Assembly (NCBI GenBank): GCA_051362555.1
Contig: CM120640.1
Coordinates: forward strand, 38,852,788 to 38,916,787
Source of the DNA: Lingula anatina
Taxonomy: Eukaryota > Animalia > Brachiopoda
Direction of reading: 5' to 3'
DNA length: 64,000 nt
Position 1 is the stretch's first letter. Each line of letters opens with the position of its first letter. Both the position numbers and the translations under genes were made by a program. Under the pieces are notes generated by a model. The model did no database searches and was not told the origin of the DNA. It was given only the letters and a program-made list of their open reading frames with translations. Shown here piece by piece: positions 37,177 to 63,851 of this stretch.

Positions 37177-37299
37177 ATGGCTGAGATGGAACCAGTGCAG
37201 GGCACAGAACCTGACACCAATGAAGAAGAGGAAGAAAATGAAGACGATGATGATATTTACGAAGTTGAGAAGATAGTAGGGATGTCAGTTTCACCGCAG
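37177..37299 (+). CDS. MPHOSPH8: MPP8-like exon 1 (acidic N-terminus + first part of the chromodomain)
   Basis: ATG 37177 to CAG|GTAAGC; encodes EEEEENEDDDDIYEVEKIVGM; phase 0. Confidence 0.9.
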
Positions 37300-40200
37300 G
37301 TAAGCACGCTCGGCTGTCACCTTGATTGGATAGTAAACGATTGTCGTAAAATCGCTAAATGATATTAAAACCGGGTGCATAAACTTGAAAACCACCTACA
37401 ACAACCTTGGACTGCCACATTAATCCAATACAATGCAAACATAAACTATAACAAGTGGTTAAAGCCTTTAAACCGAATGTCGTAAAGTCCCCATATACCT
37501 CCATAGAGACAATAAAATAGAAGAAGCTTGTGAAACAAGAAAAATCCAGTTCCAACATAATAATCGAAATAAAATACTGCCGGGCATCGGAGCGGCCTAA
37601 AACTTGGCACGCTTACCGCTAATACTGCAGGCTACATCATCCCGTCGCTCGTTTGTAAATTCCGTGCATGGCATACGCACAATCAAACCGTAAAAAACAA
37701 ATTCTCGGGGTGTCGTTGGCCAGGTCCACTCTAACCTACCATTACAAAAAAGAAGCCATGCCATTGGACAATGCGACCTCTGCGGTTACGTCATTTCCTG
37801 AATTGGATTGTTGAGTGGACCTAGCCAACGACACCCCGAGAATTTGTTTTTTACGGTTTGATTGTGCGTATGCCATGCACGGAATTTACAAACGAGCGAC
37901 GGGATGATGTAGCCTGCAGTATTAGCGGTAAGTGTGCCAAGTTTTAGGCCGCTCCGATGCCCGGCAGTATTTTATTTCGATTATTATGTTGGAACTGGAT
38001 TTTTCTTGTTTCACAAGCTTCTTCTATTTTATTGTCTCTATGGAGGTATATGGGGACTTTACGACATTCGGTTTAAAGGCTTTAACCACTTGTTATAGTT
38101 TATGTTTGCATTGTATTGGATTAATGTGGCAGTCCAAGGTTGTTGTAGGTGGTTTTCAAGTTTATGCACCCGGTTTTAATATCATTTAGCGATTTTACGA
38201 CAATCGTTTACTATCCAATCAAGGTGACAGCCGAGCGTGCAGGTAAGTGATACAAGCATGAGCATTCTTAGTCAGGTGTTTATGTTTACATTCACTATGT
38301 ATTTCAGTATTTAAACATTGCTGGAACGCTTTTTACAGCTTAAGGCACAGAAATGGACAGAGTCTAGGTTTTCTGTCTCTGATAACTACTAAAAGAAACA
38401 ATAAGGTGCGGTGATGGGTGAATACGGTATTAAGAATGGTCACGCTCAGCTGTTTAATTGATTAGTTAACTAACATTGTTTTATTACATTAAGAACAACG
38501 GAAAACGACTTCAGAATACCATAATAATCTACCTTAATGCAGTAAAAACGAGTTAAGTTTTTTTAAACGAATTAAATAAAATCCCCTGAGTACATACCCC
38601 ATATAAACCATATGATGGTAGAAGCTTATAAAACAGAATATCGAAAAAAAAAATAAGTGAGAAAAATCAACAGAAAATAGTAGATAGGGATCACCTTCAA
38701 ATTTGGTACATCTAATGAGTACCTACCTTTAATTTCCCAGGCTACACCCTCCGTTTGTAACTTTGTTTGTAAATCCAATATATCTGATTCCAGAATCAGG
38801 CCAAAACACTTTGTTGAATTAAACACTCGAGTGCCATTCAAGGACTCAACAAAAGCCAGTAGTGATGTAGGTTCAGAGTCATGATGAAGCTAGCTTTACT
38901 AAAAAGGACCCATGCCCTTTGACAAGTACAGATTCTAGGAATTTTGCACATCGGATTAACAAATAAACAGCAGGAAGATATAGCTGCGCATCCATGTAGT
39001 CCTGAACTTTAATTTGTTTTATAATTGAAATTAAAATTTCTCAAAATCTAACCTGTGCAATTCGGCAGAACTGTGTATGATTCACAATCAATGCATTGCC
39101 TCTGTTTCATTTAAGATTTTGACTAAATTGGATTTAAATAGCAGCTATTTAATAGAAAAGTGCTCTAGTCTAAATAGTGCCATGCAGAATTTTGTAGTCT
39201 CCTGGATGATAGCCTTCTTCCATACTTAAGCATCTTTTGTCCAGTTCATAATGAATGATCAGGATTGGTCTGTATTTATATGGTGGCAGTCTAATTAGAT
39301 ATACTAGTATATGTATAAGCACTATTCTCTTAAAATGAGTGAATTAGTCATTAGGCAAAGTAACTGTTTTATGCTGGTATAGACAAATGCATATGGGTCA
39401 AAACACGGTAACGGTGCCATGGGTGTCAAATTTTTTTTTGTTTCATTGAAATTTAAAATTTTTACATTTTTGTAGAAAACAAATCAAATTTTCAGATAAT
39501 GCAAGTGTCATTGATATACTCCCAGTACTTTTTCTGTGAGCCACTGGGAAACATAAAGGAAAAAAAAAATTGTCTCTGACGGGACACATGGTCATATTGG
39601 CCTGATTCAGATATTAGGTTGTTTTTTCAAGTTTTTATCACCCAAATATGTTAAACTAATCAGAAGTAATAGTTTAACATAGAAAACTGCCACCTATCAC
39701 TTATTTTGAGTAAAAAATTATTTAGCACTAGGAGTGGCGTGTCCCGTCAGAGACATTTGACTTCGAAAAGTTTTCATATTTTCCACATCTGGTAGGTTGT
39801 ATAAATGAAACTTAAAATCCTCTTTTAAATAATGATAAGTAATGATTATAGCTAAAAATTACAAAATTAAAACAATTTACAGTGAATTTATTGCCACATT
39901 TTATCGTTGTCTCTGACGGGACATTTTCTGTCTCTGACGGGACATTTTCTGACAGATGTGAAACACAAGGTTTTACATCTTCAATTGAATCATTTTCAAG
40001 TGTTCTGGTGTGTTACATTTCTTATTTTTCTTTTGCAACTGATCATTACTGGGTAATTCATTAACCATTACTGATTATTAGCTAGGTTGACTGTCAGTGA
40101 TTAGGTGTTGACATGTGCCGTCAGAGATCATGTCAGAGCACTAGAACTGTGAGCAGGTCATTCTGTTCACTGCATGTGCATGATTTAGAACAGAGTCTGA

Positions 40201-41727
40201 AGGAGACCTCCAGCTCCAACCATATGTTGTGGTATTTGATGATCTGCACCATAACAAACTGTCCGTCTTCACTTGTAATAAGGTCATTCTCGAAGACCTC
40301 CAACACCAGCATTCATTCAGCAAAGTCCATTACTGGTCAGACGGAGCACGAGCCCCCAGTCAATTCAAAAGTTGGTTTTTACTGTCTAAACATGGTACTA
40401 TCATGAAAGAGATTTTGGTATGGAAGTGCAGTGGTACTTTTTATACCACTGCCCATGGCAAAGGACCAGTGGATGGGATCATAGGGGAAATGAAACATCA
40501 GGTTTGGAGAGCAGTGCTCCAGAGAAAAATGGTTGTAGATACACCTTATCAATTTTATTTGGCTGGCAAAGAATTATGCCCCAATGTCAACATAATGCAC
40601 CAGACTGCAGCAGATATTGTAGCAGCTACCGCGCCCATCAGCAGTCGCTGGGAAAACTGTCCATCTGTTTCAGGAATTCAACACTTCCAACAGCTTCAGC
40701 CCCAGCTTCGTGGACATGTTCTTGTGTCAACCAATTCTTTGTACCAGCAACCCTCTTAATATGCTAAACTTATTCATATGACTGTGGACTTTGATTTGCC
40801 TGCACATCCGCACTATGACAATGTCGGTCAAGGCACAGCTCACTCTCACCAGGGAAATTTTGTCATTGCGGAATTTGCTGCCAGGAAAGGAGTAAAACAA
40901 TTCTTAGGTCAGGTCATCCATGACACTAAAGACGGCGAAGTGAAAGTCAGTTTCTTACGTACTGAAGGTTCTGGCAAAAGAAACTTTGTGTACCCTGCCA
41001 CAGAAGACAAAGCATGGATTCCCATAAAAGATGCAAAGGAATTCCTTCCAATGCCTAGCATAGACACTCGTGGACTTAACTTGTTTCCATCACCTGTTAA
41101 TGTGACTGCTTGAAAAAATCTCTTAAGTGCAGAAAAGATATGTGTTCTAAGACTAATACTTGTACCTTGTACCTTGCAATATGAATCACAAAAGTCTTGA
41201 TTAAATGAAATTTCAAAGAGAATTTTGCATTGGAGTTTTAGTAAAAAAAATACAGGGGTCAAAAATGTCCCGTCAGAGACGGACCTTTAAGTGATTGTCA
41301 TTCCCACATTAATTTCAATACAAATTAGCTGCTTGTTTTACATAATCCTTTATGGTCTAGCTAAATAAAAATGTATTTAAAAGTAACCATGTGGATCGTT
41401 TACCAACTGTAATTTTTAAAATTGTCTCTAAAATGTCCCGTCAGAGACATTTCAAATACCGTGTTTTGACCCATATTCTAATGTAAACATTAGAGACAAA
41501 ATAAAACAGTCTCCTCTAACACATTCAACATTTAAATTTTGCTCTGAAAAGTCAAATCCATTTAGTCTGGGCAAAACTCTATGAAACTGCTTGAACTCTT
41601 CTGTGTGACACAATAATCTGTCTGGCATTGTAAGTCTGTAACACTGTGAAAGATATTCCACATTAGAATGTGAGCAAAGGTCTTGAAAAGCCCATTTTAG
41701 AAGCAAGATATCTAACAAATATGTATA

Positions 41728-44700: not shown

Positions 44701-47700
44701 TACAGACCGTAAAGCACATGTCATATTACATAAAATGAAAAATTTATACTAACAAATATATTTGTTCCGTTGTGTAATATTTTGTATGTGAATAAATTAT
44801 TACTTTTACTCCATTTTTTAGTAAGCCTGTGTTCTGTAAACAAACCAAGGGTAACTTATAATACTGACCTACTTTATTTATAATGTATATAATATATATA
44901 TATATATATATATACACTATATAATGCATATAATGATTTATTATTAATAGCAGATACAGTACATGTATAAGAGGCTGTGAAGTAAATATGAAAGCAAGTA
45001 TGTTACATATTATACAAATATACACGTTGAATTTTAGAAATAATTAGTATACACAGGAAAAGTACCTTGTTACAGGAGTGATGAACACTGTGCAAAAACT
45101 ATTACCAGCAATTTTTAGTGATTTTCACAGCAAAAAATACCATCATATTTATAATTTAAATTGCCAATACTGTTGCTGTAGTGAACAGAAGCTCTGGCAT
45201 TGAATTTTCAGGGAAGCAGATTGTACAAGGTGAGGTGGGCAGGCTACTCACCTTCTTGGGATACCTGGGAACCCCAGGACAACCTGCTCAGCTGCCTGGA
45301 CATGATTGAAGACTACACCAAGCAAGAGGAGGAGAAACGTAGAACAAGAGAGGAGGAAAAAAGACTTGTAAATATGTTTTGTTTGATGTGAAGTTGAACT
45401 CGTTATAATGGTTTGTGGTGTTGTTCTCTTCTTTACTAGGTGTTAGTGAGTTGATGCTTTAAAAAAAGAGCAAGGTCAGTATTGAATGGTAAGAACTCAT
45501 CATTGCACTTACATCTAAAAGAAAGATATATTCTTTTTTATAGTAAATGCAAACTAATTCTTGTCAATTTAAGAAAAAATATAGCATGTTTTACCCCACC
45601 TAATAAATGTGATTTTTTAAAACTATTTTACTAGTAAATTGAGTTTTAATGTCCCATTTTAATTTTTTGCCACATCTTTACAGAAAAGGGAACAGGAAGG
45701 TGCTGGGCATTCTAAAAGAAGAAAGATGCATTATGATGAGGAGAAGAGTGATGGAGACGTGGATACAGTAAAAGACACATTCTGGAGGGACCTGGAAGAA
45801 GGAAAGATCAACGTCTTTCAAACAGGTGACTTGTATTCCAAAGTGAAATCACAAGGGCGTGCTGCTCGGCCAACATCATTCACTCCACTTTTCACTTCTC
45901 CTAGAAAAGGGAACAGTCAAGAAGAGGAGAGACCACCAAAGCAAAAAGGAAAAAGAGGGAGAAAACCAAAGACTTCAAAAGAAGTGAAAATTTCCAAAAC
46001 ATCTGATAAAGTACAGCAGATGACTGCATTGAAGGATTTTGTTTTAATCAGTGATGATGAAGAAGATAATGTCATGATAAACTTAAAGATCAATGAACCT
46101 CATTCAGATCTGACAAAGAAAGATCATAAAGAAGTTGATGAAATGGAATTGAAACCTAAGCAAGAGTCCTCTAGTGGAATTATCTCATTAGTCAATAAAA
46201 AGATGAAAGATAAGACAAAAAAGAAAAGAGAGGAAATAAAAGGACATACCACCAAGGCAAATGATGGAAAACAAACAAAGAAAATAAAAAAAGAGAAGCT
46301 TCAGTCAGTTGCTGATATGCCAATAAAGACTGATCCAGATTGTCCAAAAATAACCAAGATAAATGACAAAAGCAAAGCTCAAAGCACAAGTGAAGATGTA
46401 AAGAATGAAATGTCAGAACTTACAATGGTTTTCACAAAAAGTGAAAAGGGGATTGCCACAGAGAAAGATGTAAATGAAGTGGAGAAGAAGAAAGAAAAAT
46501 TAACCGAGGAAGCAGAAAAAGTACCAAAAAAGAAAAGGGTATGATATTTTGTGTGGTCCTGACACTTAGTCCTGATTCTTTATTCTTTTAGGATTTCCAA
46601 CATAAAAGTTTTCTATTGCATGTGACATAATTATGCAGGTAATTTTTTTGTTATTTATCATGTGCTTTCAGCACCAGGTTTTCATGATGAAATATTGAGA
46701 AGGGTTTTGATATACTGCCAGCTTGGCTTGTAGAGATGGAGGTATTCTGGATTTTCAGAAACCCTTCCATAAATCTCTCACTATTAAACTGAAAAGGTTG
46801 TAAGGAATTTTATTTCTGAGTCCTGGTGCATGATTATTCATCGCCTGAATTTTAGTCATTTTGGACATTTTAGCACCTGTTTTATATATTACATCATAAT
46901 GTAGGGGTATATGTATATATTATTGCAATTTGTATATTTACCCATGCTGGTAACATATCATTTTCTGTAATTATTGGTAGAAGTTGGGGAGAAATGTGAC
47001 TTCAAATAAATCGGAATACAATACATATTCTAGTATATCAAGTTCAAGCAAAGAATATGAATGCCCAATCAAAAAAGAATCAGTCCTGTTAGTAGGGCTT
47101 TCTCCTACACCATATTTCATATCTACAAACCATGTATCTGGCTGGCAGTACATACTCATTTGGCAGCCCCTGTCTCTCTAATGCTCTAGTTAATTCAATT
47201 TTAATGCTTATCTGTTCCTTGAATTTGCAGTAATAATTCATTGGTACATCTCACAGTATTAAGATTGTAAAAGAGAAGACCATAAAGTTGTCTAATATGC
47301 CATGCATCAAATGGTATTTAAATTCCAGATAAAACTGGATGAAGATCCTGGTATCAAAATTAGTGAGTATTATTGCAATTTGATAAATGTGTGGCACTTT
47401 GAGATTTCAGGCTATAAAATTTATTTACTTTAAGATTTGATTGCCATTGGACAACATTTCACTTACTGAATCTATTATTTTAAATCAGAATATTTTCATT
47501 AAATCTTGAAAATGTTCTTGTCATAGCATTTTCTTAAACACAAGCTTTCAAGATAAGTAAACTTTGTTTAAGTAATGTAATTCATTTGATACAAGCGCAC
47601 ATTTTTTATATATTTCTTTCTACAATTTGACATCATGGTTAGTCTTAACTCTTAAAATTATAAAGTAAAATAATGATTTTCACTTGTACGTTAGTCACTT

Positions 47701-50700
47701 TAGAATCTGATATATTAGTGTTTTTCCTTATAGTCATACCTGAGTTCATACTTGAATTTTTGCTTCATCTTCTAACCTTATTTTCTCTTTTGGCTCTTTA
47801 CAAAATACTCAGATGAACTTTACTAAAAAGTTTCAGTTTAGAGATGGCAGGAATTTACGTGGAATTTTTGTCAATGCATAATTTTGAGTTCTTAATACAA
47901 GTTTATTATATATTATATACAAACAAGCCAAACAAAACATATTTGTGAATTATTTTTCAAATGAAATAGTTATCATGTTTATGCCATTCATGGAAGAAAG
48001 GAAAATTGGTTGCAAGTTCACAATAAAAGTTTTCAATCTTCTTTTTCAGCTATAACTTCCTCTGATCCAGTTACTACTAACGGTGAATTCATGGAGGATT
48101 CTCAACTTACTACTACTATTACTACTACTACATCTACTAACCAAACTCTGGATACTAACAGTTCTAGTTCTAGTAGGGACAATACTGATTCAGTTGTTTG
48201 CAGTGTGTCACCTAACGTAGCTCGGGCTAGCAGCCCATTAGATATGTCAGGTAGTGGCAAGACACCAGTCATTGCACCACTGGTCTCGGGTTCAAATGAA
48301 ACTGGTTCTAAGGTTTCTCTTCCTCGTGGGGACATTAAACTGGATTTCTCCAAATGTCGGGTTCTGCTTAAGCCTGTCTCACTCAAAGCTAATGCACTCA
48401 TATCAAAACAGGGCGGCTATTCTGTGTCTAAATTGGTGTCGGATACCTCAGCAGAGAAGGTTGGTGGAGAAAGCACCGAGGGTCAAGAAAAGACATGTGG
48501 GAGTGCAGTAGAATTAACACCCAGCAATGATAGAGAATTGTTTAGTAATTTAGCCAAAGTAACCAAGGCAGTTAAAGAGGATGATAGTGACAGTGATGAC
48601 AGTGGTGCAGGTGCAGTTAGGGTAGCCAAACCAACTCTTGTCAAATTAACTCCTGGTAACTATGGGAGTAGGGAAATCAACAGGAGGTTTTTGAAGAAGG
48701 AGAGATCTGCATTTTCTTCACTACACCAGGACTTCTCACACAAAGAAAAACTGCCTTCAGCAGCAACCAGAACCTTTAAAGAAAAGCCAGATTTACCTGT
48801 GAAATCAAAGTTTGGAACTGAAAGCATGTACTGTTCTACTGAAGGAAATACAAACCCAATTCTACTAAAGCCTGCAGATAATTTATCTGACATGCCAATT
48901 CTTGGTGAATCTGACACCATTTTTATAAATAAAAAGTGTGAGGAAAGCAGCGAGAACAATAAGAATAAATCTGTTGAAACAAGAGATAGCACATCTAGTG
49001 CTGTTGCTTGTGAACTGAGAGAGGGAGTGATAGAAGCTGATGTGCAGGAATCAGAAGAAATGAATCAGCTAGGCACAGTCCCTACAGTGGAAGTAGAATC
49101 AGTTCCAGACAGTAAAGAAAATTTGTTTGAGTCTGGCATGTTTTGTGCAAGCATAGAGGGTAGCCCATTGGGAGATAGATACATTAAAGACGTCCCAAAG
49201 CTAGAAGTTGGCAGTAATGTTCAACAACAAACCCACAGAAGCCAGCAGCTTGATGTATATGGTACTGCTTGTAGAAAAGAACAATTAGAACCCTTTGGAA
49301 ACATAACTAGTGCAGAATTACAGTTGTCTTCAGCAGACACTAAATTGGTCCCAGTTGATGTGGAGAAGAGAGAAGCTGGGGTGGCAAACATCAGCCCTCC
49401 ACCAATATTAGAGCCTGTAGGCAATGTACAGCAAACTCAGTCAGATTTAGAAGAAAAACCATCTCAAGCCATGGAAGAAGCAGATTTGAAAGCAGTTATG
49501 TCACAAACTACATTAAATGTAGAATCCATTACTTCTTATGCTGGTCCTAAAGTAGAGGGACAGACTTTAAAACCAGGAGACCAAGCTGATGAAGCACAAA
49601 GTGTGATAGAAACTGTGGAATCCAGTTGTACAGAGGCAATTACATCTCCACCTAAACCACATTTCCCTGGATCAGGAAAAGAACTTGATTCTAAAGCAAT
49701 ACCACAAGACACTCTACCTAAGGAAATTGACACTGCAATTCCCACTGATATTGCAGGGGTTGCTCTGTCTGCTAATTCAGTCATTTGTATGAACACTGTT
49801 GAATCAACAGCAAAGACGCAGTCAACAACATCTAAAACTGAGACAAACCAAGCTTCACAACATGTGCAACCCCTTTCTGAAATGGCAGAGAAACAGTCGG
49901 AAAACAGGGTAGATAGTAATGAAATTATGACAGAAACACCCAAGAACTCGTTGAGCAGTAAGCAGAAAAAGGAGCCAATTTCAACAGGAGCATTCAAAGC
50001 AACACATAGGGAGGCGGTTGCAGTTTGTCATGAACCTGATGAGCAGGAAATACAGCCAATTTCAGATGCTCTGTCTGCTAATTCCATAATTGGTGTGAAC
50101 ACTGTTGAATCAACAGCAAAGACACAGTCAACGACATCTAAAACTGAGACAAACCAAGCTTCACAATACGTGCAACCCCTTTCTGAAATGGCAGAGAAAC
50201 AGTTAGATAACAGGGTAGATAGTAAAGAAATTATGACAGAAACAACAGAAAAGACACAGTCAACAACATCTAAAACTGAGACAAACCAAGCTTCACAACA
50301 TGTGCAACCCCTCTCTGAAATGGCAGAGAAACAGTCAGATAACAGGGTAGATAGTAAAGAAATTATGACAGAAACAACAGAAAAGACACAGTCAACAACA
50401 TCTAAAACTGAGACAAACCAAGCTTCACAACATGTGCAACCCCTCTCTGAAATGGCAGAGAAACAGTCAGATAACAGGGTAGATAGTAAAGAAATTATGA
50501 CAGAAACAACAGAAAAGACACAGTCAACAACATCTAAAACTGAGACAAACCAAGCTTCACAACATGTGCAACCCCTCTCTGAAATGGCAGAGAAACAGTC
50601 AGATAACAGGGTAGATAGTAAAGAAATTATGACAGAAACACCCAAGAGCTCATTGAGCAGTGTGCAGAAAAAGGAGCCAATTTCAACAGGAGCATTCAAA

Positions 50701-53700
50701 GCAACACATAGGGAGTTGGTTGCAGTTTGTCATGAACCTGATGAGCAGGAAATACAGCCAATTTCAGATGCTCTGTCTGCTAATTCCATAATTGGTGTGA
50801 ACACTGTTGAATCAACAGCAAAGACACAGTCAACAACATCTAAAACTGAGACAAACCAAGCTTCACAATATGTGCAACCCCTTGCTGAAATGGCAGAAAA
50901 ACAGACAGATAAGAGGGTAAATAGTAAAGTAAGGATGACAGAAACACTGAAGAACTCATTGAGCAGTGTGCATAAAAAGGAGCCAATTTCAACAGGAGCA
51001 TTCAAAGCAACACATAGGGAGTCAGTTGCAGTTTATCATGAACCTGATGAGCAGGAAATACAGCCAATTTCAGATGCTCTATCTGCTAATTCCGTCATTG
51101 GTGTGAACACTGTTGAATCAACAGCAAAGACACAGTCAACAACATCTAAAACTGAAACAAACGAAGCATCACAACATGTGCAACCTTTTGCTGAAATGGC
51201 AGAGAAACAGTCAGATAACAGGGTAGATAGTAAAGAAAGGAAGGCAGAAATGCCAAAAAGCTCATTGAGCAATGTGCAGAAAAGGGAGCCAATTTCAACA
51301 GGAGCATTTAAAGCAACACATATGGAGTTGGTTGCAGTTTATCATGAACCTGATGAGCAGGATATACAGCCAATTTCCGATGCTCTGTCTGCTAATTCCA
51401 TCATTGGTGTGAACACTTTTGAATCAACAGCAAAGACACAGTCAACAACATCTAAAACTGAAACAAACGAAGCATCACAACATGTGCAACCTTTTGCTGA
51501 AATGGCAGAGAAACAGTCAGATAACAGGGTAGATAGTAAAGAAAGGAAGACAGAAACGCCAAAGAGCTCATTGAGCAGTTTGCAGAAAAAGGAGCCAATT
51601 TCAACAGGGGCATTCAAAGTAACACATATGGAGACAGTTGCAGTTCACCATGAACCTGATGAGCAGGAAATACAGCCAATTTCAGACCCAGTTAATGTGA
51701 TTGATGTGAGAATGGAAGATCCATGTGTACTTGAGATGAAGGATTCACAAAATGCACTACCTAGCACTGAACCAACTGTCACAGGTTTTGAGGAGACTGT
51801 ACCAGACGGGCAGAAGAAATCAGATGAACACAGCCATGGAACAGATACACTGCAGCTTAAAACTGCAATGGCAACGGAGAAGGAAATATCCGAGACACCG
51901 CCGTTGGTTAAAGACACTGAACCAACAACAGAAGATACACAGTTGTCTTCAGATGACATTAAATTTTTTCCAGTTGACATTAAGCCTCATGTGGCTATAG
52001 AAAGTACAGGTAGTGAAAGCAAACTTACAGAAATAGATCTGAAACAGACTGTAACAAGTGTTGATCCCAGTGAATTAAGCAAATCCAAATTGGCAACAAA
52101 TTCAACCCTTGCTGATATACTACATGAGTCGGAGGAAAGTCCAAATGACAATCTACCAGTGTCAGTGAAAGACTTGAACCAAAGAGAATTGAATCTGGAA
52201 CCAGATCTAAGTATTCTAAAAAATCCAGACCAAATTAAGGATGATGAGGATCTTTTAGGAAAATATCATTCAGAAGTGGCAGTCTTGTCCAGTGAGCAGC
52301 CAGTTGAGGCACCAGTGACAGAGAAAGGTGATCAGTTTGATGCCGAAGAATTAATACATGACACTGACAGGGTGGAAGTAACACAGACTGAGGCAAGTGA
52401 CTTTGGTGTTGAACATACTACAATGGAAACACCAAAACATTCTGAACCAGTACCAGTGAATATTATTGAAACTACAGCACATGTAGAATCAACAGAAGTG
52501 GAGGCTTCCAGAGATGAGGAAACGGATGTCAAACAAACCAAAAAGCTTTCAGAAGATGAAAATCTAGAGTTACACACAGCACATACAGTGGAACTGGGAC
52601 CTACTGAAATGGAACTTGATGTTAGGGCAATTGTAGCTGAAACTGAAGGAGTTGAGGAATCCAATACAATGGCAGATGATACCACAGTAAATACCAACAA
52701 TGTGCTGCTTTCTGTTACAGAGGAAGAAACTCAGTCTTTCACAACTGCCAAAGTGACACAACTCATGTCATTTATGGGGCCTTCAGAGGTGACAGTGGAT
52801 AATACACAGAATTCAACTTCAGACCTGGAATCTGAAATCATGGTCTTTGCATCAAATGAACAGCAAGTTATAGCAGTAGGGAAGCCAACTGGGGTTGATA
52901 ATGTACTTCCTTCTGGGAGTACATGTAATAACACACCATGTTTGGAGCCCACTGCTGTCCCTGGAATAGAAATGGACACAGATGTAGTGCATGTACCGGT
53001 AGTTGTAGAAACACAACCAGTAGATGCTGTAGAAACCCTTGTTGATGAAACTTCTACTGATGCACAATTCATTGCAGCAGATGAGAACCCACAGGCTACA
53101 GATGTACCAAATGTTCCAACAAAAGATGAGCCTGTAGCATCAGAAAATAAGAATATGCTAGAGAATGAACAATGTTCTTCTTTGGTTAAAGCATGTTGTG
53201 TGGTCAGCATAGAGCATAATAAAACATCTAGTAATTATAAATCAGGAGATGTGAAACCAAGTGGAGAAGAAAATGCAGCCGTTGAAAAACCAGAGGTAAA
53301 GCCTGTAGTAGATTTGCATGGTGCGGAAGATACAGCTATGATACCCCCAGCACACAGCCAGCAAACCCAATCAGCTATAGAATCTACTGTGGGGGATATT
53401 GTGAAAACTACTTATGATGTAGCACGTGCTGTGTCAGATGAAATACTAGCTTCAGAAAAAAATAATGAGCCCAAGGGGGGATTGATCCCTTCTGTGAAAA
53501 AGGAAGAACTGACATTGAGTATTACTTCTGGGTGTATTCAAGATGTTCCAGAATGCAAGAGGAATGTTTCAGGTGTTTTGCAAGAACCTGGCAAGGATTA
53601 TGTAAAAAAAGCAAACTCAAGGAAGTTATTGACAGACTTTGAAACAAATACTGCCAAGAACAAGGAGAAAATGTCAAAGATGGCCTCATTAGTGCTACCT

Positions 53701-56700
53701 GATAGGACATATGCACAGCATGATATGCTGAAGACAGAAAAACCTGATATCCCCGGAGCTAATATTAAACAGTTGGAGGATGCAGGTATACAGTCTGGCA
53801 AAAGAGCACATTGTGCTATTCCTGGTGAATGTTTAGAGGTAGAGAAAGGTTCTCAAGTTGCAACTCATCTCAGAAAAGAAGATAAGGAAGTTTCTCAACA
53901 GCATGAAACTGCAAGTGAAAGGACACATTCAATAAGAAAGAAACCAACTATAAAATTGAGCCTTTTAAAAGATACATTAAAAAGAAGAGAAGTGCAAAGT
54001 TCCATAGTAAAACTAGAAGCAGGTGAAATATCTGCAACAGACATCAAAAAGGAAAGTAAAACAAAACATGTTAAGATGCCTGATGATAAAATTACAGCAG
54101 TCTCAGACACTAAAGAGAAAGCAAGTGAAAACATGGTAGAGACACAGCAGAAGAAAATTGGATTACAGCAAAGAGGGGATGGTAAACAGCAGTCAAACAC
54201 AAATGTAATTGAAAGCACAAGCAAACACTCAGAGGCACTAAGACATGTGACAGTTCCAGAAAAAAATGAACTTGTAAAACAAAATTCAAGGACTTTGTCT
54301 CACGAACATGAGGGAAGCCAGATACCAGTAGTAATTCAGAAGTCTCCAAGACCAACACCACCATCTCCAGTGCTTTTGGAGGGAAATAAAATTTCAGTTC
54401 AAATAAGCCAAAGGCAAGAAAGCCCCTTCAAAAAACAAAAGTCTGTGGATGAGTCTCGTGAAGTTAAACCACTTCCTAGAAATGTAGAGAAATTTAAACT
54501 TGAAGAAAGTATTTCACCTTTGATTAAAAAAGCTCCCATGCAGCCTCTTAAACATGTGCCCAGTGTTAGTCCTTCCCTATCGCAGTCAAAGTCAGGACAA
54601 AAAATCTCACCAAAGCAAGATACACAACAAGTGTTTGTTGATAAAAGCAAAATAGGAGAAATGCTGCATTGTATACGAAAAGACATGGAAAAGAGGGAGA
54701 AAAATTATCCTGTAACTGATTACAGGGCTATTTTCACCCAGCAAGAATGCCAGAAAGATTCTAGAGAGGAGACGCCACCAGAAAGTCCCAAAGAATATGT
54801 TGAGAACCCTTTCCATGATGTCGATATGAGACCACCACCAATTATATCAGCTTCTCAAAGAGAAGAAATTCTAATTCATGAAGTTTCCAGGCGAGAATTG
54901 GTGGATCCCATAAGATTACCCTTGCAACCAGATCAAAATGTACAGAATTTTCCACCAACAGATAACAACTACCAACATCCTATACGTTTTCATCCTCCCA
55001 ACCATGAAGGGCCAAGTGCATTTCACACTGATTTTCCTAGACAGTCTCTAGCAGAATCTACTCAACATTATCACCAACCATCCATCCCCAAGAATAACTC
55101 CTCTGCCTTTTTTCAAGCCCCTTTTCCACCCTCTGGCCCTGTGGCCCATGAAAAGTCATCAGAAGTTGCAGACCCTCCCTTTCAACCTACATCTTCCAAT
55201 ATGGCTCCTGCATTTCAACATCATGGTAACCAAATGACAGAGCAAGACCAACTAGATGACTTTGGTAAGAACCAATTTGATATGTCTCACAGGCGCTTTA
55301 CTCGAATAACACCCCAGTATCAGCATGTGGATAGTTCTCCTTGCTATACATGTACAGCTACCTATAATATTGGTTATCCTTACCCAGTGTGCACTGTGCC
55401 TACTTCAACTAATATTGTTTCCTCTAGTAGCTATAGACCTGTGGTGAAACAGTCTTTTTGTGCTGCTGCTGAACAAAAATCCTTACCACCAGCTGACATT
55501 ACAAAAACTAGAAAACACAGCTATGAAGCAAGTTTTTCAGCCATACATGATATATTACATCCTAATGTTGCTGAGAAGGTTATCCCATCTACCATGTCAG
55601 CTGGTTTGCCATCATCAAATAGTTTCTATCCAAGAGTCTCTTTTGGCTGTGGTACTTCAAGTGTTGAATCAAACCCACCTTTGTCTCAATCTACTCCCAG
55701 TGATATAACAAGTTATTACGACCATAATGGAACAGCAGTGAACACTGATCCCATATACAACTTTGCTTTGGCGCCAATTAACAGAATGTCTGTGAACAAA
55801 TCTGATGAAAATGGGTCTGGGTTAGTTTCCTCTGCATCAGATATATATGTATCATCATCCATATGTACAACCTTTAACACCATACTTAGTAGTCTGAGGA
55901 GCTCAACTAGCAGTGTAACCAAGCCTGTGTTGTATGACAAGCCTATGTTGAGTGTGGCTTCAAGTCCATTGGCAACTATTACTGCTACAACTTCTACTAA
56001 TGGTGGCTTAGTACATTCTTCTTCAACAAGGACAAAGGATGTGTTCGGCAAGATGCCAGCATCTGCATCCTCTACCTCGACCACTTCTTCTGTTCAGTGT
56101 TACTCTGCTACTTCCAAGCCTAGCTCTGGTATTTAGTTTTTGTTTGCTTTTTCTAATTTTGTTATGTTTTGCCTTATTGAGTTGGAATGCTTAACTTGTG
56201 TTTTTTTCCTATTGCATCCCTTTTTTATAAGATGTGGTGTTTTATTAATTCACACTGTTGTATTCTAATTGTTTACATTTTCTTTCCTTTTAAACCATGA
56301 GATTTTGATACACATCCTTAAGTGTTTTATCTATAACATTATAATGAAAATTTAGATGAAGAATGGCTTGCTTAACAGAAATATTTTTCACATTCAAGAA
56401 TCCTATTGAGTCTTAAACATTGAATAGCATATTGTGTCCCTGAATGTTGTATTTTGCCCCTGTTTAGATCATGGGTTCAATTCTGTTTCAGAAGACGAAA
56501 TCATCCTAGAGGAGTTCACTGAAGAGAGGTGGAATGAAATGGTAAGAGCAAAGATATTATTATTTATCTTTCAATTGTTTCTCCTGTAGTATCTCCTGTA
56601 GGGATGAGCCTTTACGATTGATATTATCTGCTTATTTAATTTGCACATGAGGTCTCTCTGTACCGTAAACTTTCCAAAATGGTAGAAATAGAATAAAGTA

Positions 56701-56799: not shown

Positions 56800-59700
56800 T
56801 TTTTTTTTAACAAAATTGTTATCTTTCAGGGAGCAGAACTTTTAGAGGCCATTGAGATTTCTAACTGTAAGTAGTTTGGGTGAAACATTGGTTTGGTATG
56901 TTTAGTAAATGATACCAATAAAAATAAAATGTGCAAGTTTATTCCACCTTAACTTTTAAAGGGCAATATGTATAATTTTCCAAGCTGCTTCACATCTCCG
57001 TATACCAATAGACTCTGAAAATGTGATAGTTGTTAATTGGTTGAAGTTGAAATTGAGACATTAAGTCCCTGGGAAAACTCCTTTGTGCAGAAGATTGCAA
57101 GTATCATGATCAAAGGCGTTGAGGACAAATGCATGATAATTTAATCAATACATGTGCAAGTCTTGTATTTGTATTTGTAGCTGACTTGAAACATGCTGTG
57201 AAGGAAGGGATGTATGAGAGGGTGAGGAAAGCATTGAACAGCCAGAAACAGTACAACCTGGAGCAGCCTGATCAAATGGGAATGACATTAGTCATGCTTG
57301 CTGCTGCTAAAGGTAGTATTGCAAATTGAAGTCTTAGTATCTGTAACTGTCTGTATTTGTTACAGTTCCCAATACTGGTCCATTATTGATGCTATGCATA
57401 ATATCCCCCTTTTTCCTATGAATCTGTTTCCTTATTCAAAGTTAGTCAATCATTCCTTTTTATGTACAGACACAGATGTGTCTGTACATATAGCCGTCAT
57501 CTGCGTCTGTCATCGCCTTCGCCGTCGTTGCCGTCGTCGCCGTGCACTTTTACCGATAACACGATAAGTGGAAAACTGTTTTTTCTTTTTGTTTGAAACT
57601 TACAGAACTGATGAATATTCATAATACGCAGGTTGAGTTCGAAAATCAGCATGATCGGGTCACTTATATGGAATTTATGCTGTTTTTTCACTTTTTTCAG
57701 CATATATGCAGCACCGATAACACGATAAGTGGAAAACCATTTTACCTTTTGGCTTGAAACTTACAGAACTGATGAATATACATAATACGGAGGTCAAGTT
57801 TGAAAATCAGCGTGATTGGGTCATTTTTAGTGAATTTAGGCTATTTTTTCTCTTTTTTCAGCATATTTGCAGCACCGATAACACGATAAGTGGAAAACCA
57901 TTTTACCTTTCGGCTTGAAACTTACAGAACTGATAAATATTCTTAATACGCAGGTCAAGTTTGAAAATCAGCACGATCTGGTCACTTATAGGGAATTTAT
58001 GCTGTTTTTTCACTTTTTTCAGTATATATGCAACACTGATAACACAATATAAGAAAAACAGATTGGCCAATTGTCATTATACTCACAGGAGGGGCCAATC
58101 TTACTAAAACGCAGGTTGAGTTTGAAAATCAGCATAATCAGTCCATTATTTTAGAAGTTATGCTGTTTTTTCACATTTCCTCACATTCAATTCTTAGGCA
58201 TGTTAACAGTCTCATTATTGAACTAATAAGATACGTAAAAGTGTTTGTTTGACATTTCCTGCATCTTTACAACATTGTTAGTTGATTTTTTAAAAATGAT
58301 GGTAAACTTGTTATCATGTATTGTGTAATAAAGTGTCAAAAATGGAAATAAACTCATATCATTGCAGTTTGTCAGATGCATTCATCCACTATGTTCAGAA
58401 TCTCAGAATGGAGGAAGTTGGACATTTAACACTGTTCTATTGATACTTTTCCCATCTCATCAATTTTCTTCATTGGTCATATAAAAATGGCAGTAAACTG
58501 TTTATTTTGTTTTATGTTAAAAAAGTGTTAAAAATGGAAATAAACCCATTTCAGAACAGTGCTGTCTTGTTTACATTTTGGCATTTTCAATATGTGACTT
58601 TGAAGTTCCATGGGCCTGAAGACTTTTGCTTGTCACATTTTCTGAATAACCATGATACTAATATTTTATAATTAAAAATTGATGGTCATTATGCTGTAAA
58701 ACATTATGTAATATTGCATCAAAATGTGAAGAAACCCCTATTTTGGGCACTGCTCCCATGATGACCATTTAAGGAAAATCATGTCACTTACTGTTCTTTA
58801 ACTTACAGGAAAGAGACATGGGACTAAAATACAGCTTCAGTAGGCAATGCAGTCTGTTTGGTAAATTTTTCTGGCAATTAAACAGTTTTTTGTGAAAATT
58901 TAATTTTTCACATATTGGCATTTCCAAGGTGTGACTTCGAACCTCCACGGGCTTGAAGACCCATGCTAGTCACATTTTGTGAAAATCCATGACACTTATA
59001 TTTTATTATTAATAATCGATGGTCATTATGCTGTTAAGCATTATGTAATGTTGCATCAAAATAGAAGAAAACACAATTTTTGGTGCTGCTGCCTTGATGA
59101 CCATTATGGGAAAACCGTGTTACTTATGACTGTCAAACTTTCAAAAAAGAAACACAGGACTAAAATGCAGCCTGAGTTAGAAAAGCAGTCTAATTGGCTT
59201 CTTTTTCTGGAAGTTATACATTTTAGTGTAATATTCATTATCTTTTTGGCATATTCATTGTGGGACTCGGAGCTCCCATGGACATGAAGCCAAATGGTAA
59301 TCATATTTTCTACATGTCCATCCTATTTATAGTCAATAAACAAAAATTGGTGATAATTATTCTCTAATTTATTATGTAATGTTACATCAAAATTGACAAC
59401 AATCTTTTTGCACTGCTACTGCAAACATTATGAAAAGAAAACTGTGCCACTTATTATAATTTTAAACTTACAAGTACGATTTTTAGGATTGGCCTTCAGC
59501 TCATGAGAAAACCAGCTCTATTGGATTATCATGTTTATTGTATTTATGCATTTTTTGTGAAATTTTCATTTTTCTCATTCTGGCACTTTCTAAGTATAAA
59601 CTTGAACTCTGATGGGCCTGGAGCCTTATGCTTTTACTTTCGTCTGTGTTACCTGTTGTGCATAAGTTGATGTTGACTGTGCAGTTAAACATAATGTATT

Positions 59701-60874
59701 ATTGCATCAGGATTGGTAGTCTCCTATTTTGGGCATTATGGTTTTGTGCTTTTCTTAAGGTGTGACTTATGGGCCTGAAGACCTTTGAGTGGGTCAGTCT
59801 GTAAATTACCCTTGGGTATCACTAGATTAATTTCAGAGTTATAAAGTCATTTGCTTTAATAGGCCATTAAATGAGATTACGTAAAGCACACTTGTTGATA
59901 TTTCCCTGTAAACTCCCAAAGGTAAAGCTCTCTGATAGATTAATAATAAGGAAGCAGCGATAATTATGCAGGTAAATTTTGTTTAATATTGCAAATAAGT
60001 TTTAAATATATATATATATATATATCAAACTGGAAGATTAAAAGTTTGAATAGCATCTTCATTGGAATTATATTTACCTCAAGCTCTGCCAAGGAGGTTA
60101 TATTTTCACCCCTGTTTGTCTGTCATCCACATAACACAAAAAAGTTATGGACCAATTTTGCAGAAATTTTCAGGAACTGTCGGAAGTGGGCCAAAGAGGA
60201 CAATGATTAATTTTTGGTGGTGGTCCGGATCAATAATCAATCAATTATCAATAATAATCAACAATTGCTGCCTTGGCAGAGGTCTGCACTCTCAAAGTGC
60301 TTTTCTAGTTTTGTTGTTTTCCTTTATAATTTTTTCTCAAACACTTGCATTTGTGACTTTTAACTTTCATCTGCCTGGGGCTCTGCACATTTTCTGTATT
60401 TCTACATAAGCAGTTGTATTGTTTTTTATGTCTTTAAACATTATGTAATATTATTTTATGCACTGTCATCATTTTTCAAATATTGAGACTTTCATAATGT
60501 GAATTTGAACTCTCATGGTCCTGAAACTGTAAACTTATTGAAGGGGTGGATTGAGACCATCTTCTGGGTCTTCCGGAAGACAGTCAGGTTATTAAGTTTA
60601 TATTGACTGGTATCTATTTTTTTCTGTTGGAAGACCATCAAAATGGAGGATGGATCAACATAGATACTTTGTAATACTGTCAGAAAATATCTCTGGGTCT
60701 GCTCCTGTTATTGACCATGTTACCTGTTGTGCAAGATTAAAATTCAGTGTTGACTGACAGTGCTATTATAAGCATTATTTATTATTGCATCAAAATTGAC
60801 AAAATGACCTTTTTTGCATCTTTATTTTCTGTTTTTTGTCTGTACATTTGACAGCTTTGCTGCCTTGTTTTTAT

Positions 60875-60908
<34 letters not shown>

Positions 60909-63851
60909 TAATAATCTTTTAAGATTATTATGGAGGATATCCATCTATGAATGCATATGTGATCTGATAGCAAGCACAGATTTCAGAATAATTGCAATAG
61001 CTGCCGTTATGGTGGCAAAAAGGAATTTATTCTATATTTATGTGCTGTTTACAACATATTTATGGAATATTGAATCTCATATGAAGAGTTGTTACCCATC
61101 AAGTCCTTATAATGAAAAAATGATTGAGTTTATTTCATGCAAAATTAATTCTGATATTTTTTACATTTCAAGTACAACATTGAAACAATTTTATCATTAT
61201 TTGCTAGGGTTTGATGACCTGGTGGAGTTATTAGTTATTAATGGTGCTAACATGAATGCCAAGGCAAAGACGGGCAACACTCCACTGATGTTTGCTGCAG
61301 AGAATGTAAGTTAACAGGCAATTGATTTTTTTCTTTCTTTCTTTCTTTTTTTTTCTCTGTGCAGCTATTTCTATTTTATTCAAAATGTTCTATTTTTGAG
61401 ATATATTGGTTATTATTATTATTGTTATTTTTTGTCACTCTTTCCCATGCTGTTATGTTCTTCAATTTATTGAGGTTTGGGAATTAGATTGCAAACCTAA
61501 TATGAAATTGCTGTGTATTTTTTAGGGTCACCTTTGTACTGTGGCAGTACTTCTGGCATTAGGAGCTCACATCAACATCCAAAATGGCAGTCAGGAAACT
61601 GCACTCATCAAGGTGAGGTTATAAGTCCCATGACTAGTCAGATTGAGGAACAAATAATATGCATGCTTGTAAGTGATATGTAAAATTTTGTCTTTAAAAG
61701 CTGACACGACACACATTAATATCTTTTGAGAAAATGATGTCTTGTTGAACACACCAAACAGCCTTGTTCAACATTCGCATATATTTCCATAACTTGCAGG
61801 CTACAAAGAAAGGGCACAACCAAATTGTGAAAATGCTGTTAGAAAATGGCGCAGACTTTTCAGCTGAGAATGCCACTGGGAATACTGCATTGAAGTATGC
61901 CAAACTTCTCAACAGTGTGGAACTTCAGGCCACTATCAACCAACATGTGAAGAAGTAGGGGTCTCTTTTCTTCTTTCCCATTTTTGTTCATGCTTTAGCA
62001 ATATGTTTTGGTTTCTGTTAGTTTGGTTTTAATGTGGATTAGATGAATGATTAGATAAATCTGGTATGGGAGAAAATATTATCACTGTAAAACAGGTTTT
62101 ATCACAACATTGGTCTTTTTTCTTTTTAACTATTTAATAGAATACAATGCATAATTATATTATAAGAAAAAAATATATATAACTTTTGAAGAAATACATT
62201 TTTGTTAAAAGTTTGCATTTCAAATATTTACTTAAGACTGATGATTTTGTTCTATTCCAAATTAGACTTACAGCTCTTTTCACCCAGCAAGTTTACCTGA
62301 CAATGAACAATACTGCAGAGACTGTGTGCTCTTTGTTTCCACTTCATGTTCTCCCACTGAATGAAGGGGACAAATTTGTCATACACTTTAACCATGAACT
62401 ACAACCAACAGTTCCAGGTTTGAACACTTTTTGTCTTGAACATTAGACTTGTTACTATTAAATATCTCTGTATTTATTCAAAAGGTTCTTTTTTCAATGA
62501 ATTTCAATATGAGAAAATAATCTAATAATTCTTCTTTTTGTCAATGAATACATTTATAGTACGTGGTATGTAAAGATTTTGACAACCTGGTATTTGTAAG
62601 TGTTAAACTTGTTAAACATTTATGACTACCTTTTTCTTTTGCCACCGGAAAAATTAGTTTGGCTGGCATTTAAAACAGATTATGTGCACAACCTATTTGC
62701 AGGGAATAGTTTATGGGTCTGTGTCTTATTTTCATTTGCAGGTGTGGGTATGCTTCTGTTTGTGGCACATGCCCGTATTACACCTCAGGAGACCAAGTGT
62801 AGATTGTCAGGACCATGTGCTGTGAAGACTGCCATCTTAAATGGGGTGGCACAGCCAACATTGACAGATGTGAGTTCTCATTTATTTAAACATTTAGAAA
62901 ATGTTCCATTAACTATAAGACAAAATTAAAGTAAAAATTCAAGAATGAGTATGTGATACAATTTGATAAATGTAATGAAAAGTCAGGCCCATAGGTTGGA
63001 GGTTAGACATAAAAGGTCCACTCTGAATCTAAATTGTATCTAGGTTCTGTGCAATTTCTCAAATTGGGTCAACTAAGGGGGAAACGTCCACTTTTCCAAC
63101 CTCACATGTAATGTACTATTCAGGAAATTCTGTTATAGTGTAAGTCTGTTATACGCAGGTAATGTTCTTTGTTGTTATACAGAACCAGGACTTCCAGATT
63201 CTGTATGTTATAGATGAGTGCCCAGTTTATGTGAGGCCATTATATACAAGGTCTACTTTATAATGCATTGTCAAGCACAAGACACCAGAAGTTATGTGAT
63301 ATACAGTGGCACTACTTGAGATAATTCTTTCCTTAAGTTAACTTTTTTTTCGGTAGATACAATGAATAATTTCTTTTTTTCTAGGAAGGTCAGTTTGTGC
63401 TGTCTTTCAGCCCACTACACAATGGAAGAAATGAGCTCATAATTCATACAGTTTATGCACCCGCTTCACGAGTAAGTTTTGTAAACTTAAGTGATTCTTA
63501 TGGCTCTTCTTATTAATACTTGATTTGTCAGCCTGATCCTGAATATGGAAACCATATGATTTATGTACTTTGTAAAAGATTCTTTAAGCATTTCTTTCTT
63601 TTCTATTGATATGTTGATAACTGACATGTTAATTTTTAGTTGCATAAGTTTCTTGTTTATATTGAAGTTCTAAATTATATTGTTTCATTACAAATTTAGA
63701 AAACAAAATGAAAGCTCTATTGATAAAATTAAAACAAACTTCAGGGTAAATTGGTTGAGATTGGAAATTTTCCATATGATCTTATTTATTCTAGGCCAAG
63801 TTGGTGGTTGGTGCATATAAAGCCAAACTGTTACCAAACAGTGAGCAGTAA
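37177..63851 (+). CDS. MPHOSPH8: M-phase phosphoprotein 8 (MPP8) ortholog: chromodomain, long linker, ankyrin repeats, MPP8 C-terminal domain; complete 15-exon model
   Basis: Chromodomain DIYEVEKIVGMSVSPQ|GSRLYKVRWAGYSPSWDTWEPQDNL. The ankyrin and C-terminal exons (LKHAVKEGMYERVRKALNSQKQYNLEQPDQMGMTLVMLAAAKG; GMLLFVAHA..CRLSGPCAVKTAILNG; FVLSFSPL..N.L.I..; AKLVVGAYKAKL) match recalled human MPP8 (ALNSNEEYNLDQEDSSGMTLVMLAAAGG; GILLFIFHA..ARLCGPCSVQAVVLN; FVYSFSP..; KLLIGAYRVQL). Confidence 0.9.
37305..38239. mobile_element. Non-autonomous foldback DNA transposon (427-bp inverted arms, 81-bp spacer, 8-bp TSD CAGGTAAG)
   Basis: 37305-37731 is the reverse complement of 37813-38239 with only a few mismatches (ORF 37355..37558- and the C-terminal part of 37932..38189+ encode the same peptide). 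Termini are CACGCTCGGCTG...CAGCCGAGCGTG; CAGGTAAG flanks both sides (37297-37304, 38240-38247). Confidence 0.92.
39395..41472 (+). mobile_element. Internally deleted Sola2-like DNA transposon
   Basis: TIRs GGGTCAAAACACGGTA / TACCGTGTTTTGACCC with ATAT on both flanks (4-bp TSD). Repeated subterminal motif TGTCTCTGACGGGACA occurs in both orientations (~39571, 39740, 39909, 39929, 41265, 41433). Transposase remnant inside. Confidence 0.8.
40229..41113 (+). pseudogene. Degenerate DDE transposase fragment (Sola2-type) with a C-terminal Tudor/SH3-like segment
   Basis: Motifs HYWSDG..SQFKS and FYTTAHGKGPVDGIIGEMKH in ORF 40229..40759. A second ORF 40778..41113 follows (GNFVIAEF..FLGQV..VKVSFLR..FVYPATEDKAWI). 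The N-terminus is missing and a stop separates the two ORFs. Superfamily assignment rests on recalled motifs. Confidence 0.72.
42953..43221. mobile_element. Palindromic MITE, copy 4 (more diverged)
   Basis: Starts taagactgggttccc; contains ctaaattgc..cagcttaa and aattacacctttacag..gacagacatctaagcc. Confidence 0.6.
43726..43893. mobile_element. ~168-bp MITE with CAGGGG...CCCCTG termini and 6-bp TSD (CTTCCT)
   Basis: Imperfect TIRs; CTTCCT at 43720-43725 and 43894-43899; homologous copy at 60541-60707. Confidence 0.8.
45212..45367 (+). CDS. MPHOSPH8: MPP8-like exon 2 (chromodomain core)
   Basis: tttcag acceptor; GSRLYKVRWAGYSPSWDTWEPQDNLLSCLDMIEDY; 156 nt; GTAAAT donor. Aromatic cage residues (Y in exon 1, W and Y here) are present. 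Confidence 0.93.
45684..46538 (+). CDS. MPHOSPH8: MPP8-like exon 3 (K/E-rich linker)
   Basis: ttacag acceptor in frame with ORF 45726..46544; AGG|GTATGA donor; 855 nt. Confidence 0.85.
47329..47362 (+). CDS. MPHOSPH8: MPP8-like micro-exon 4 (IKLDEDPGIKI, phase 0 to 1)
   Basis: ttccag acceptor and A|GTGAGT donor. It supplies the phase shift needed to join exon 3 (phase 0) to the phase-1 acceptors at 48050 and 56468. Confidence 0.75.
48050..56128 (+). CDS. MPHOSPH8: MPP8-like giant exon (8,079 nt, 2,693 codons, low-complexity S/T/E/K/P-rich, probably disordered)
   Basis: Uninterrupted 2708-codon ORF 48010..56136. Strong acceptor ttctttttcag at 48049 in phase 1, and a candidate phase-1 donor G|GTATTT at 56128/56129 just before the stop. 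Confidence 0.75.
49762..51687 (+). repeat. In-frame coding tandem repeat in the giant exon: five 306-nt (102-aa) units plus three extra 132-nt (44-aa) sub-units
   Basis: The motif gctctgtctgctaattc starts at 49762, 50068, 50770, 51076 and 51382 (spacing 306, 702=306+3x132, 306, 306). The peptide KTQSTTSKTETNQASQHVQPLSEMAEKQSDNRVDSKEIMTET is repeated. Confidence 0.95.
56468..57312 (+). CDS. MPHOSPH8: MPP8-like exons 56468-56541, 56830-56866, 57181-57312 (entry into ankyrin domain)
   Basis: DHGFNSVSEDEIILEEFTEERWNEM|GAELLEAIEISN|SDLKHAVKEGMYERVRKALNSQKQYNLEQPDQMGMTLVMLAAAK; phases 1-0-1-1 are continuous. Confidence 0.85.
56722..56795. repeat. (TA)n microsatellite
   Basis: Long pure AT run. 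Other simple repeats: (TA)n 41733-41773, (TAAA)n 29888-29934, poly-A 5199-5228, poly-T ~60876-60907. Confidence 0.95.
60072..60310. mobile_element. Short Helentron-type MITE (CTCTGCCAAGG...CCTTGGCAGAG...CTAGTT) nested in the large element
   Basis: Inverted subTIRs CTCTGCCAAGG / CCTTGGCAGAG and a terminal gcactctcaaagtgc palindrome followed by ctagtt. A related relic lies at ~19095-19146. Confidence 0.7.
60541..60707. mobile_element. Second copy of the 6-bp-TSD MITE (TSD TTATTG)
   Basis: Aligns with 43726-43893; TTATTG at 60535-60540 and 60708-60713. Confidence 0.8.
61208..61954 (+). CDS. MPHOSPH8: MPP8-like ankyrin-repeat exons 61208-61305, 61526-61612, 61800-61954
   Basis: GFDDLVELLVINGANMNAKAKTGNTPLMFAAEN|GHLCTVAVLLALGAHINIQNGSQETALIK|ATKKGHNQIVKMLLENGADFSAENATGNTALKYA fits the ankyrin-repeat consensus. 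Confidence 0.93.
62266..63851 (+). CDS. MPHOSPH8: MPP8-like C-terminal domain exons 62266-62417, 62742-62869, 63385-63471, 63795-63851 (stop TAA)
   Basis: LFPLHVLPLNEGDKFVIHFNH..PG|VGMLLFVAHARITPQETKCRLSGPCAVKTAILNG..|EGQFVLSFSPLHNGRNELIIHTVYAPASR|AKLVVGAYKAKLLPNSEQ*; collinear with the recalled human MPP8 C-terminus. Confidence 0.9.

Follow-up and report, generated by a model that had tools for sequence, protein, structure and literature searches.

The MPP8 locus of Lingula anatina

We analysed a stretch of 64,000 nucleotides (nt) from the brachiopod Lingula anatina (assembly GCA_051362555.1, contig CM120640.1, positions 38,852,788 to 38,916,787 of the forward strand), here called the window; coordinates below count from its first letter. 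Its + strand carries the orthologue of MPP8 (MPHOSPH8), a subunit of the human silencing hub (HUSH), in 15 exons (37177 to 63851), the fifth of which is a stop-free stretch of 8 kb that RNA reads show to be skipped, shortened or included. The MPP8 identity, first proposed in an initial annotation made from the sequence alone, is borne out by the chromodomain, the ankyrin repeats, the match to the human MPP8 structure 8QFB and the RefSeq names. In the RefSeq form of 716 amino acids (aa), Pfam Chromo matches residues 28-78 (E=4.5e-13), ankyrin repeats are also present, and residues 416-710 form one continuous match to 8QFB (E=3.5e-61). The chromodomain is 42% identical to that of rodent MPP8. 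Exon 13 is 98% identical to RefSeq M-phase phosphoprotein 8 of L. anatina and, taken alone, has 8QFB as its sole match. By sequence comparison, the Lingula protein follows the same plan as MPP8, with a chromodomain, a disordered linker, ankyrin repeats and a PINIT-like C-terminal domain, and the corresponding binding activities are predicted.

Exon 1 (37177-37299) holds the ATG and the start of the chromodomain; it comes from the gene model, is matched by the loose ends of reads before 45209, and agrees with the way the RefSeq proteins begin. The remaining chromodomain lies in exon 2 (45212-45367; Pfam Chromo E=4.6e-10), which reads join to exon 3 (45367>45684), a Lys/Glu-rich linker (45684-46538) supported by RNA depth and joints. 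Exon 4 (47329-47362) measures only 34 nt, is entered by the joint 46538>47329 and ends in a phase-1 donor that is joined either to 48050 or to 56492. Exon 6 (56492-56541) begins the pre-ankyrin segment at the acceptor used by all joints and by RefSeq isoforms X1, X3, X4, X6 and X7. Exons 7-15 (56830-63851, with the stop at 63851) encode the ankyrin repeats and the PINIT-like domain; reads support the exon 6-7 junction, and the remainder rests on the model, near-identical RefSeq proteins and the 8QFB match.

Exon 5 (48050-56128) is preceded by AG and followed by GT, has phase 1 at both ends and is flanked by two phase-1 boundaries. Its 8,079 nt equal the length of 2,693 codons, and 2,692 codons are read without a stop, where about 175 stops would be expected from base composition; the other two + frames contain 153 and 293. 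The stop-free, symmetric 8.1-kb exon described in the initial annotation is thus real. The same source placed the start of the next exon at 56468 and predicted proteins of 724 and 3,417 aa. Those lengths are exact for that acceptor, but no joint to 56468 is listed in any of the eight RNA runs described below; all are at 56492, 24 nt downstream and in the same phase, so that the sizes become 716 and 3,409 aa.

Four splice forms and their differences between samples

Nine raw-read RNA sequencing runs carry the Lingula species label, and eight of them, from three studies (P1, runs X1-X3; P2, runs X4-X6; P3, runs X7 and X8), were mapped on 45100-56700. Reads were sampled at about 6% or 25-26% per run, likeness cut-offs were 95% and 90%, and joints were counted only if at least three reads supported them in some run. 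Four splice forms were found, with all joints GT..AG and in frame. Entry into exon 5 (47362>48050) is crossed by 29 reads in five runs (6 in X1, 2 in X2, 2 in X6, 11 in X7 and 8 in X8), and the whole exon is skipped (47362>56492) in at least 8 reads from two runs (4 each in X2 and X3). Three donors lead out of the exon. Donor 48082 leaves a 33-nt mini exon (48050-48082) and is joined to 56492 by 13 reads (2 each in X1, X2 and X5, 3 in X7 and 4 in X8). The internal donor 55264 ends a 7,215-nt form (48050-55264; 55264>56492, 22 reads: 2 in X2, 4 each in X4 and X5, 6 each in X7 and X8), and donor 56128, also used by RefSeq X1/X2, ends the full 8,079-nt form (56128>56492, at least 7 reads in two runs: 2 in X2, on the unexpected strand, and 5 in X8). 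For the skip and 56128 joints, runs X1, X4, X5 and X7 may each hold up to two more, uncounted reads. Both giant lengths are multiples of 3, and among giant junctions the 7,215-nt form is the commoner (22 vs 7 reads). The predicted proteins of the four forms measure 716, 727, 3,121 and 3,409 aa (81, 82, 344 and 375 kDa).

These counts refine the two-state switch put forward in the initial annotation: skipping and inclusion both occur, but through a ladder of donors (48082, 55264 and 56128). Of the junctions it named, 47362>48050 is present, and 56128>56468 and 47362>56468 are replaced by their counterparts at 56492. Joining reads are present and inclusion is not constitutive, contrary to the two outcomes that it had held to speak against a switch. 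Almost every read of the six stranded runs maps to the gene's strand, and intron 3 has a depth near zero. Depth over exon 5 is continuous in runs X4, X5, X6 and X8 (18/18 bins covered), and reads across 47362>48050 in runs X6 and X8 have 35 and 47 letters on their shorter side, past the 33-nt donor. Short reads cannot prove a single molecule running from exon 1 to exon 6; the continuous depth in these four runs and the reads past the mini-exon donor favour one.

Further variants of these boundaries were noted. The intron after donor 56128 (56129-56491) has read coverage in runs X6, X7 and X8; its retention would end translation 2 codons past the exon, in a giant protein that lacks the ankyrin repeats. 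RefSeq X9 points to another exon 4 donor at 47350, and RefSeq X2/X5 fit a tandem acceptor at 56495, 3 nt after 56492; neither is listed in the mapped runs.

The balance between forms differs between samples. The ratio of depth over the giant exon to depth over exons 2-3 is 0.15, 0.11 and 0.09 in P1 (runs X1-X3), 1.78, 1.13 and 0.37 in P2 (X4-X6), and 0.34 and 0.65 in P3 (X7 and X8), where read divergence lowers the values. Junction reads point in the same direction, with short/giant counts of 12/4 in P1, 2/8 in P2 and 7/17 in P3. The low P1 ratios point to dominance of the short forms, because a 3′ bias would raise the ratio rather than lower it. Inclusion of exon 5 is likely to be regulated.

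Reads of runs X7 and X8 diverge by several per cent from the window sequence, and 241 of 641 X8 reads fall at 90-95% likeness. Such divergence would fit a distinct population or cryptic species under one species label.

Public annotation holds part of this picture. Among the nine RefSeq isoforms of L. anatina MPP8 examined (XP_013386273-281), X7 and X6 equal the 716- and 727-aa forms in length and junction. Three models (X3-X5) have slightly longer exon-5 stubs, which together with GT sites place short donors at 48172 and 48250 (exon part 48050-48250); no joints from these are listed in the eight runs, where reads are cut at 48103-48140. X1 and X2 lack the chromodomain, start at Met 2204 of the exon (54661), use donor 56128 and carry the exon's last 489 aa with 2 differences. 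None of the nine uses donor 55264. Neither exon residues 60-2,200, nor any full giant protein, nor an MPP8 of 3,121 or 3,409 aa was found in the protein collections searched, and the giant MPP8 forms appear to be unannotated in these. A literature search found nothing on Lingula MPP8 or Lingula TASOR, and among the titles returned for MPHOSPH8 isoforms none concerned a giant form.

Composition, drift and relatives of the insert

The protein encoded by exon 5 is rich in Ser, Glu, Thr, Val, Lys and Pro (Ser, Glu, Thr, Lys and Pro together make up 45%), and aromatic residues are scarce. No Pfam family reaches the cut-off anywhere along it; sub-threshold matches to Aldolase and bPH_1 were rejected. 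The disorder anticipated by the initial annotation is predicted for most of its length, 15 of the 18 FoldIndex windows scoring about 0.02 or lower. The three others are the first window and the final pair, and this pair is exclusive to the 8,079-nt form. AlphaFold2, run with no alignment, gave a mean predicted local distance difference test score of 33.7, low even over the ankyrins, and so provides no evidence on disorder. No enrichment was seen for H3K9 mimics, PxVxL, SUMO-interacting, SUMO, nuclear localization or CDK motifs. SQ/TQ dipeptides number 41 (32.6±4.6 expected) and are mostly derived from repeats.

No homologue of exon 5 was found among proteins of 1,480-4,711 aa or of 30-1,479 aa, in a search that needs shared exact words. 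A transposon origin is unsupported, with neither domain nor homologue. For 53452-55263, a relation to RESF1 (retroelement silencing factor 1; DUF4617) was considered but not confirmed: the three best ESM Atlas matches, all RESF1 clusters (0.77-0.79), fall under the 0.9 line and PF15395 is unmatched at E up to 10. None of the ESM Atlas leads (0.76-0.79) was confirmed.

In-frame tandem repeats occupy 49813-51690 (exon residues 588-1,213; Tandem Repeats Finder periods 306 and 132 nt), with five units of about 102 aa and three of 44 aa that are 88-96% identical. The ratio of nonsynonymous to synonymous change (dN/dS) between units is 0.39-0.54 (p 0.008-0.09, depending on transition weighting), a sign of weak constraint. 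Among the P3 variants listed (40 of 170 and 40 of 373 rows), exon 5 has two indels, of -117 and +15 nt, which both keep the frame, and the following intron has three (+1, +5 and +2); no stop is created by any of the 57 exon substitutions. In exon 5 the reading frame seems more important than the residues it encodes. The exon contains 36.2% A and its 7,215-nt form 37.1%, vs 30% in the flanking introns.

A full HMMER search with the MPP8 C-terminal domain gave 91 hits, of which 32 non-Lingula proteins matching both chromodomain and ankyrin repeats formed the spacer set; named orthologues include molluscs, an annelid, a nemertean, a centipede, a sea cucumber and a rodent. The chromodomain-to-ankyrin spacer measures 225-1,270 aa in these 32 vs about 2,700-3,000 aa in the predicted giant Lingula forms, and none of the 32 spacers resembles exon 5. 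The longest orthologue among the 91 hits has 1,658 aa, so that the giant forms would be about twice the size of any MPP8 found in other animals. Three long hits (3,256, 2,817 and 1,569 aa) were discarded as unrelated repeat proteins. Exon 5 is probably a lineage-restricted expansion; as annotation can overlook exons of this type, and did so in Lingula, absence from other animals is not established.

Elsewhere in the window, a perfect inverted repeat (37304-38240), whose 428-nt arms are 100% complementary and separated by 81 nt, starts 4 nt past the exon 1 donor; it could reflect a fold-back in the assembly or be a true palindrome. In intron 1, 39391-41476 has 20-nt terminal inverted repeats, sub-terminal repeats and broken open reading frame pieces near 40184-41110, and looks like a decayed DNA transposon; a Pfam search of 40184-40756 gave no match. 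Intron 8 carries a 161-nt tandem repeat in about 3.9 copies (57552-58178). UTP20 lies on the - strand (16531-17082 and onward; Pfam E=6.7e-36) and appears to stand head-to-head with MPP8.

Interpretation and known systems

Collectively, we consider it probable that exon 5 is an alternatively spliced giant coding exon whose four forms vary with the sample and which would insert 2,400-2,700 aa of predicted disorder between the chromodomain and the module of ankyrin repeats and PINIT-like domain. The choice would be set by tissue or stage, through splicing activators and repressors that compete over this long, A-rich exon and its weak rival donors, in the way described for SAFB and SR proteins. 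The used donors 48082, 55264 and 56128 rank 6, 42 and 71 of 413 GT sites in a crude profile and are not outstanding, which would fit control by RNA-binding proteins. Since the frame is kept while residues drift, the giant mRNAs are likely translated. The insert would act by its length, charge and low-complexity contacts rather than as a folded domain.

The splice point aligns to about residues 533-541 of human MPP8 (numbered by taking the end of the 8QFB chain as residue 860). Human residues 536-562 are predicted to wrap the SPOC domain of TASOR, and residues 521-559 are needed for repression and dispensable for TASOR binding (10.1101/2023.12.21.572340). TASOR-like proteins are described in invertebrates (PMC10578480). 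Every exon-5 choice alters the residues just before exon 6, so splicing likely tunes the segment that is predicted to wrap TASOR in human. An X3 model of Dipodomys merriami MPP8 lacks 42 aa after residue 523, in the same pre-ankyrin segment as the Lingula splice point.

Several results weigh against this interpretation. The Lingula copy of the pre-ankyrin motif is degenerate, scoring at most 3.6 bits against the profile, which makes the TASOR-segment step weak. Junction counts are 2-11 reads per run, with mates possibly counted twice; no single read spans exon 4 into the exon body, and runs X4 and X5 list no 47362>48050 joint. The difference between P1 and P2 junctions has p=0.014 on reads and p=0.10 when these are halved, and the depth ratios are confounded with study, library type and population, in runs that carry no tissue labels. 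The repeat dN/dS is non-significant when transitions are weighted at least 3-fold (p 0.058-0.092), 0 stops among 57 changes has a chance of p ~0.07, and the between-population pN/pS (0.72-0.96, from 54 codons of listed variants) is not different from 1. GAAGAA is not clearly enriched, occurring 13 times in exon 5 vs 13.4±3.3 after codon shuffling and 9.3±2.4 after synonymous shuffling.

Some of these observations would fit a tolerated expansion, in which the splicing is real, the giant forms serve no separate function, and repeats grew in a permissive linker with selection on the frame only. The near-neutral amino-acid drift, the recent repeat growth, the wide range of spacer lengths in orthologues and the lack of an exon homologue in protein searches agree with it, but giant forms make up a large transcript share in 5 of 8 runs, and the 8-kb frame is kept in a population several per cent diverged despite a full skip route; we regard this explanation as unlikely. 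The opposite proposal makes the giant form the regular product and ascribes the short ones to splicing noise or to library effects; it can draw on the excess of giant junctions in P2 and P3. It is contradicted by the dominance of short junctions and the depth ratios of 0.09-0.15 in runs X1-X3, and by RefSeq, which independently holds the 716- and 727-aa forms. It is already largely refuted, and we give it hardly any weight.

Two further accounts question what the exon-body signal means. If transcription largely started inside exon 5, the main product would be a chromodomain-less ankyrin protein, and full-length giant molecules would be rare. The start of RefSeq X1/X2 at 54661, the absence of exon residues 60-2,200 from the protein collection, a rise in depth at 54775-55161 in runs X4, X7 and X8, and the ratios above 1 in runs X4 and X5, which list no entry joint, all point that way. 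Yet four runs have unbroken depth from 48196 on, read starts were not flagged as piling up near 54.6 kb, runs X6 and X8 have reads that cross into the exon past the mini-exon donor, and a break in an older assembly or 3′ bias could account for both the RefSeq start and the depth rise. We judge an internal promoter very unlikely. Alternatively, the exon may matter as RNA. HUSH targets are described as longer than 1 kb, transcribed, A-rich on the sense strand and intron-free (PMC7619638); exon 5 is a transcribed, intron-free stretch of 8 kb with an A-rich sense strand, the kind of sequence on which HUSH acts by silencing and SAFB by retention. The MPP8 gene would then be a substrate of its own complex, with feedback on supply, and the giant protein would be secondary. 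The higher A content relative to the flanking introns agrees with this, but the A-richness may be a mere by-product of amino-acid content and of AT-rich third positions, an RNA sensor would not need the reading frame to be kept, and HUSH is described for vertebrates. We hold RNA-level sensing to be rather improbable.

A bolder version, which we put forward as a long shot, combines the RNA and protein roles: the MPP8 gene would carry its own HUSH bait, an optional A-rich exon by which it would pass for a retroelement before the very complex it builds, and the splice choice would be between a compact MPP8 and a 344-375 kDa MPP8 with a rewritten TASOR-wrapping segment. Exon 5 matches the description of HUSH targets and belongs to the gene of a HUSH subunit, so a feedback loop could arise from it. 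If true, an invertebrate would have a silencing complex that regulates itself and is switched by splicing. A literature search on autoregulation of HUSH/MPP8 through long exons turned up, by title, only Xist-related work.

Most known giant cassette exons belong to cytoskeletal scaffolds. With exon 5 read as an alternatively spliced giant coding exon, one lies in MPP8, a core reader in transposon silencing, and would enlarge the protein more than 4-fold by splicing alone while changing residues that adjoin the segment required for repression in human cells. Given the gap in public annotation, MPP8 genes of other invertebrates may conceal exons of this kind. The exon would also offer a natural test of HUSH-style silencing of long A-rich exons in invertebrates, and of MPP8 self-regulation. 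Should it prove to be no more than growth that a permissive linker tolerates in a single genus, it amounts to an annotation fix and a curiosity.

Three known systems resemble it. Giant protein-coding cassette exons are long, coding, more than 33% A, enriched in purine-rich enhancers (GAAGAA), included in a tissue-specific manner and suppressed by SAFB, with examples in ANK3, ANK2, MAP2, MAP4, NIN, MPRIP, NASP and CLIP1, the NASP exon being a chromatin-linked precedent (PMC10901741). Exon 5 is likewise multi-kb, frame-keeping, skipped or included and more than 33% A; it differs in that its host is a heterochromatin reader in a brachiopod and that GAAGAA is not clearly enriched. The ankyrin-G giant exon, of 7.8 kb, yields an intermediate 270-kDa and a 480-kDa form, and it and other bilaterian giant ankyrins are like exon 5 in size, internal in-frame donor, Ser/Glu bias and lack of cross-lineage sequence conservation (PMC5422562). 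The gene is a different one, there is no sequence homology, the ankyrin repeats in MPP8 have no more than the fold in common, and Lingula uses at least three donors. Single long host exons such as BRCA2 exon 11 acquire HUSH-dependent H3K9 trimethylation, and BRCA2 exon 11 and AHNAK exon 3 are, like exon 5, single long A-rich transcribed exons in intron-containing genes (PMC7619638). The Lingula exon differs from these in lying in the gene of a HUSH subunit and in being optional.

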